Positions 24,942-28,624 of a DNA stretch of 64,000 nt are shown in pieces; the stretch's first letter is position 1, and each line of letters starts with the position of its first letter. Origin of the DNA: Dictyostelium discoideum (Eukaryota); NCBI GenBank assembly GCA_000004695.1, contig CM000151.3:2976001-3040000 (forward strand), in the 5' to 3' direction. The notes beneath the pieces are model-generated. The model made no database searches, was not told the origin of the DNA, and saw only the letters and a program-made list of their open reading frames with translations. The translations under genes and the position numbers were made by a program.

Positions 24942-28624
<3,683 letters not shown>

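Follow-up and report, generated by a model that had tools for sequence, protein, structure and literature searches.

Five base differences between the arms of the chromosome 2 inverted duplication in the Dictyostelium discoideum AX4 reference, four of them inside ap2a1: probably a local discrepancy in the right-arm copy

The inverted duplication and its ap2a1 copies

The DNA analysed here was a 64-kb stretch of D. discoideum AX4 chromosome 2 (referred to as a whole as the window), with an A+T content of 79%. It displayed a left arm and a right arm that matched each other as reverse complements over 23,918 bp, with five mismatches and no gaps (99.979% identity), on the two sides of a unique spacer (Table 1). 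The AX3/AX4-specific inverted duplication (~750 kb) on this chromosome was described by Bloomfield 2008, and reportedly also by Glöckner 2002 and Eichinger 2005; its second copy in AX4 was placed at chr2:3016083-3768654 (Li et al. 2016, PMC5052037). Window position 40083 corresponded to chr2:3,016,083 (offset 2,976,000); since the right-arm start thus coincided with the published start of the second copy, the window is the centre of this known inverted duplication.

The window shared with the published duplication (i) arms that were inverted and met at the 379-bp spacer at the published position, (ii) gene pairs with paired identifiers, e.g., DDB_G0273435/DDB_G0273505, and (iii) EAL accession numbers that were mirror-symmetric about the centre (70672+70707 = 70674+70705). 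It differed in one respect: published work masks the second copy as interchangeable, while one gene pair here differed between the arms by four bases plus one. Copy-to-copy differences were not mentioned in Bloomfield 2008, the REMI-seq paper, Li 2016, the dictyBase updates, or the Hi-C paper, in all of which the duplication was described or masked, and a literature search by gene identifiers returned nothing relevant.

The gene in question was ap2a1. The protein of its left copy (P0001) was identical to EAL70674.1 / XP_644619.1 / Q86KI1 (AP-2 complex subunit alpha-2), and that of its right copy (P0121) to EAL70705.2 / XP_644631.2, which was represented by a UniParc sequence only. Pfam domains Adaptin_N (residues 34-590, E 8e-119), Alpha_adaptinC2 (764-865), and Alpha_adaptin_C (872-984) were recognized in the ap2a1 product, which is accordingly the AP-2 alpha-adaptin, with a trunk and both ear domains joined by a flexible hinge.

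Several further elements were recognized across the arms. Tandem TRAF-type zinc-finger genes were located at ~16962-21890, with internal repeats at 18158-18374 and 19407-19622 (89% identity); the TRAF-family pair DDB_G0273435/DDB_G0273505 displayed no difference between arms. Each arm contained a direct repeat of ~385 bp with 89% identity (20001-20383 and 23623-24008, with mirrors 55778-56163 and 59403-59785), one copy of which was located inside the Fe-ADH-family gene downstream of ap2a1, while the second copy may represent a fragment of a pseudogene or a partial paralogue. AT-rich repeated segments of ~200 bp with 90-96% identity were found at 27731-27930, in the ap2a1 intron region, and at 30606-30808, ~2 kb upstream of ap2a1, and at their mirrors. 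An ATG-initiated ORF of 215 aa (39478-40125, plus strand) ran from the left arm through the entire 379-bp spacer into the right arm and thereby crossed the inversion junction; the sequence near the inversion point was reported to be unstable in AX3-lineage stocks (Bloomfield 2008).

Table 1. Coordinates of the duplication, the two ap2a1 copies, and the sites discussed in the text (positions of the window)
Feature	Position	Strand	Remarks
Left arm, AX3/AX4 chromosome 2 inverted duplication	15786..39703		Portion with a mirror partner inside the window
Spacer at the inversion point, unique, 379 bp	39704..40082		Arm-to-arm identity ends here
Right arm, inverted duplication	40083..64000		Runs out at the window end
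ap2a1, left copy, 7 exons, 989 aa	24942..28624	-	Exon mapping of P0001; NTTSNT
ap2a1, right copy, 7 exons	51162..54844	+	Mirror coordinates, translation; NSTSGS
Four-substitution cluster, left side	26060..26071	-	Ancestral state
Four-substitution cluster, right side	53715..53726	+	Derived/aberrant; sense C>G, A>G, A>G, A>T, all nonsynonymous
Right-arm derived patch, sequence			AATAGTACTTCAGGTTCTGCAAAT
Fifth difference, left side	24691		G on plus strand, C on ap2a1 sense strand; ancestral
Fifth difference, right side	55095		T on plus strand (ap2a1 sense), equal to A in left-arm orientation; derived/aberrant
Error-like block, the same in both arms	32380..32480 (mirror ~47306-47406)		L001 and L005 versus AX4

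The five differences and their direction

Four of the five substitutions were clustered in the last exon of ap2a1, at 26060/53726, 26062/53724, 26063/53723, and 26071/53715 (left/right) in the arm alignment, exactly where the original prediction, made from the window by itself, had put them. The sense strand read aatactacttcaaatactgcaaat in the left copy (AAT ACT ACT TCA AAT ACT, encoding NTTSNT) and aatagtacttcaggttctgcaaat in the right copy (AAT AGT ACT TCA GGT TCT, encoding NSTSGS), and the three differing hinge residues that had been foreseen were recovered in the deposited sequences as T614S, N617G, and T618S. These variant residues (614-618) fell in a low-complexity linker that connects Adaptin_N (34-590) to the ear domains (764-984), and an effect of the changes on AP-2 function is unlikely. 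The prediction had also held these four to be the only arm-to-arm differences, which proved incorrect: a fifth substitution was found at 24691/55095. This intergenic site was located 251 bp downstream of the ap2a1 stop codon and adjoined a T9/T10 run, the right-arm T lengthening the T9 run to TATAT+T9.

The differences were far from scattered. Four of five substitutions falling within 12 bp by random placement in 23,918 bp had a probability of ~2.5e-9, which bore out the earlier claim that the cluster did not arise by independent point mutations. All five were located inside 1,381 bp of the 23,918-bp arm (P ~6e-5 if independent), the fifth lying 1.37 kb from the cluster; when the cluster was taken as one event, the resulting two events within 1.4 kb had a P of ~0.11.

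The direction of change was read from other strains and species. A protein cluster of six sequences was composed of P0001, P0121, another discoideum-clade strain, two D. citrinum strains, and D. firmibasis; NTTSNT was present in five of them, with P0121 (NSTSGS) as the sole exception, and P0001 was identical to KAM9952323.1 from an independent assembly. At the nucleotide level, the comparison was made with contig L001 (JBTAPE010000001.1) of GCA_054883475.1, a near-identical independent D. discoideum assembly that was collinear with AX4 chr2 at 99.5% identity. Over 15.7 kb, L001 displayed 21 mismatches to the left arm and 26 to the right arm. At five of five sites it matched the left arm. The assembly probably corresponds to AX2-214 of Holland et al. 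(PNAS 2025, PMC12745789), in which AX2 and AX4 were 99.5% identical at another locus; the comparison with single-copy AX2 that had been proposed earlier was made here on this probable AX2 assembly. Left-arm bases were likewise found at all four hinge sites in L002 (discoideum clade, ~93% identical), in D. citrinum (L003), and in D. firmibasis (L004); at the fifth site L002 carried the left-arm base, while the D. citrinum alignment was unreliable there. Among the compared strains and species, NSTSGS occurred in the right copy only. As the left-arm bases were common to other strains and species, the left copy is ancestral, and all five changed bases are on the right arm.

A single ap2a1 occurred in L001, at ~3.005-3.009 Mb (3.001-3.005 Mb in AX4 chr2), and P0001 had one location only in GCA_054883475.1, the probable AX2-214 assembly. 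These observations fit an AX2-like strain that lacks the duplication and is collinear with AX4 from the chromosome start; no duplication was reported for AX2-214 (PMC12745789).

The polarity also bears on an earlier proposal that ran in the opposite sense, namely that the left copy had been altered through gain of an aatact...aatact direct repeat by template-switch repair, the right copy being original. The aatact direct repeat was indeed local to the left copy of the two, but the left sequence with this repeat was also present in GCA_054883475.1, GCA_054859355.1, and D. citrinum, and in D. firmibasis with one synonymous third-position change. With the left version ancestral, the template-switch argument points the wrong way: the repeat is ancestral, and the right-arm change destroys it. 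An altered left copy is therefore extremely improbable.

Two arms from one consensus

The two arms agreed with each other in sequence classes that are counted by length. Homopolymers common to both arms numbered 95 of at least 10 nt, 24 of at least 20 nt, and 11 of at least 30 nt, with zero length differences; the longest identical run was 57 nt, exceeding the maximum of 50 nt given earlier. The 115 microsatellite tracts per arm likewise displayed zero length differences. Moreover, an error-like block of ~100 bp, with a T47 run on one side and a long A run on the other, was identical in both arms (Table 1). At ~20 positions in this block, L001 and the ~93%-identical L005 agreed with each other against AX4, which is most simply explained by a Sanger consensus of low quality in this stretch. 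The presence of an identical error-like sequence in both arms shows that they stem from a single consensus: the reference arms repeat this consensus and were not determined independently of each other. Their identity is therefore by construction, and any difference confined to one arm must stem from an edit of that arm or from a different consensus call made locally.

Over 15.7 kb, nearly all remaining differences between AX4 and L001 were in homopolymer length, the long A/T homopolymers of the AX4 reference exceeding those of GCA_054883475.1 by 1-22 nt (33135-33146, 32481-32502, 22944-22948, 20905-20910, and others). Run lengths are unreliable in one or both of these assemblies.

The protein records had different histories for the two copies. 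The right ap2a1 protein was at version 2 (EAL70705.2, XP_644631.2), while the left one was at version 1 (EAL70674.1, XP_644619.1), and the TRAF-family pair two genes away (EAL70672.1 / EAL70707.1) was at version 1 on both sides. Among the gene pairs checked, the version bump was confined to right ap2a1, so that the record of the aberrant copy was revised apart from its twin. We infer that this revision introduced the differences of the right copy from its twin.

Origin and meaning of the right-arm bases

Templated events, such as a short template switch or gene conversion, typically leave clusters of four or more substitutions in ~12 bp. A short tract of the right copy might have been replaced from an ectopic donor elsewhere in the genome (e.g., another Ser/Gly/Asn-rich coding tract) or by a short template switch, and the clear non-independence of the cluster is in favor of such an event, as is its likeness to template switching and interlocus gene conversion in being a dense substitution cluster without an indel. 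However, the 15-, 19-, and 23-mers of the derived patch had no other match in the 64-kb window on either strand when up to 2-3 mismatches were allowed; exact matches over the three adjacent changed bases (53723-53726), direct or inverted, reached at most 5 nt within 1 kb and at most 8 nt within 5 kb; and no local match, direct or inverted, covered all four changed sites within 5 kb. The ancestral sequence, used as a control, gave 5-, 7-, and 10-mers, i.e., similar or longer chance matches, and the best matches of the derived patch were judged to be at chance level. The searches thus gave no support for copying of the derived cluster from nearby sequence by a short template switch: the defining template was absent from the window, and the direction of change was opposite to that first proposed. 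Perfect identity for >1 kb on either side would in addition require a very short tract, which would not account for the fifth change at a distance of 1.37 kb. A templated patch on the right copy is consequently improbable. Of the alternatives offered by the original prediction, the consensus error in one copy is favored, and the templated or gene-conversion-like patch lacks its template in the window.

Two other sources of the changes were considered and rejected. (i) NTG mutagenesis at the origin of AX3 as the cause of the cluster: the NTG mutation spectrum is of the G:C>A:T type, and only the fifth change was of this type. (ii) Mutagenic break-induced replication at the formation of the duplication: the expected density, by our own estimate, was too low by orders of magnitude.

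Spontaneous divergence of the arms was weighed against measured rates. In D. discoideum, base substitutions arise at a rate of 2.47e-11 per site per generation and indels about twice as often, the mutation spectrum is strongly biased to G/C>A/T (the A/T>G/C rate being 0.44e-11), and multi-nucleotide mutations accounted for 8 of 37 substitutions, in 4 lines (PMC7466956). With 1e4 generations since the duplication, which is our assumption, the expected number of substitution events was ~0.012 for the two 23.9-kb arms and ~0.4 for 2 x 750 kb. At ~0.012 expected events, real divergence of the arms is not expected, and five substitutions together with zero indels in 24 kb do not agree with the pattern predicted for spontaneous divergence. 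Within the cluster, three of the four changes were not of the dominant G/C>A/T type.

The five right-arm differences are accordingly best read as a local discrepancy in the reference that affects the right-arm copy only and is not biology, a reading to which we give a probability of roughly 0.55. It is supported by the match of the left arm to other strains and species, the shared homopolymers and error-like block, the version bump, the low mutation rate, the mutation spectrum, and the missing template. Within the reference, the discrepancy would have been introduced into the right arm alone, possibly when the sequence was later revised or patched, or because different reads were used for the consensus there; the two gene copies in the cell would then not differ, and we infer that the differences are absent from AX4 DNA. 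The situation resembles other reference or curation discrepancies of mirrored duplicates in that the arms were identical down to 57-nt homopolymers and shared an error-like block, and in that the difference was on one arm, whose protein record alone was revised. It departs from them in that a clean, frame-preserving cluster of four substitutions without an indel, located in coding sequence of an ordinary kind, is atypical of the low-quality Sanger consensus signature.

This last point is also in favor of a different origin: a genuine mutation private to the AX3/AX4 lineage, which arose on one arm after the duplication and was recorded there by sequencers or curators, the four changes in 12 bp and the substitution 1.37 kb away stemming from a single error-prone repair or synthesis event. 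Such an origin is less probable than the favored reading, but it is the chief alternative to it. The reading frame was kept and common codons were used; the five derived states were on the same arm within 1.4 kb, as for one event or haplotype, and within clone-mate distance, which is also the outcome of read-pair phasing of a real haplotype; one real difference is not implausible with ~0.4 events expected over 2 x 750 kb; and the version bump of the right copy could equally be a deliberate, evidence-based edit that recorded a real, high-quality discrepancy assigned to one arm. The nearest precedent is that of multi-nucleotide mutations, in which several substitutions within 50 bp in one lineage were attributed to a single event (2020, PMC7466956). 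The average there was two substitutions per event, far exceeded by four in 12 bp plus a fifth at 1.37 kb, and the present variant is a feature of the deposited sequence. The changes A>G (twice), C>G, and A>T run contrary to the strong G/C>A/T bias, and no indel or repeat-length difference accompanied them, though co-assembly would hide such differences. The more specific proposition that the right-arm changes are real and represent one error-prone tract of at least 1.4 kb (a "mutation shower") on a decades-old duplication arm is slightly less probable still.

AX4 reads or read-derived contigs over the site were found neither in exact look-ups nor in protein searches nor in a metagenome scan. 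In the assembly/Logan index, exact look-ups of P0121 and of the last-exon ORF (591 aa) from either copy gave no match, while P0001 was found only in GCA_054883475.1. Protein searches with a 142-aa hinge query returned 26 candidates with one unrelated 107-aa match, and those with a 320-aa query returned only homologues of at most 74% identity. No read-derived D. discoideum fragment over the variant site was found, although Logan contained at least one D. discoideum contig for a neighbour gene (P0132), and the metagenome scan, run with a degenerate pattern that fitted either variant, had zero matches.

Under either reading, the practical value is small, and the matter is a minor point on the reference of a laboratory strain and a well-known protein. 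If the reference is in error, as we favor, ap2a1-2 (EAL70705.2 / XP_644631.2) has three wrong residues and should be corrected to ap2a1-1 / Q86KI1, and the AX4 arms, being one consensus used twice, are uninformative on real divergence between the copies. If the changes are real, they would form a mutation cluster of unusual size in a species whose substitution rate is among the lowest known, and AX4 would express two alpha-adaptin isoforms that differ at three hinge residues; the patch would then be a rare natural sequence tag separating otherwise indistinguishable arms, useful for following recombination, loss, or conversion between the arms in AX3/AX4 stocks.
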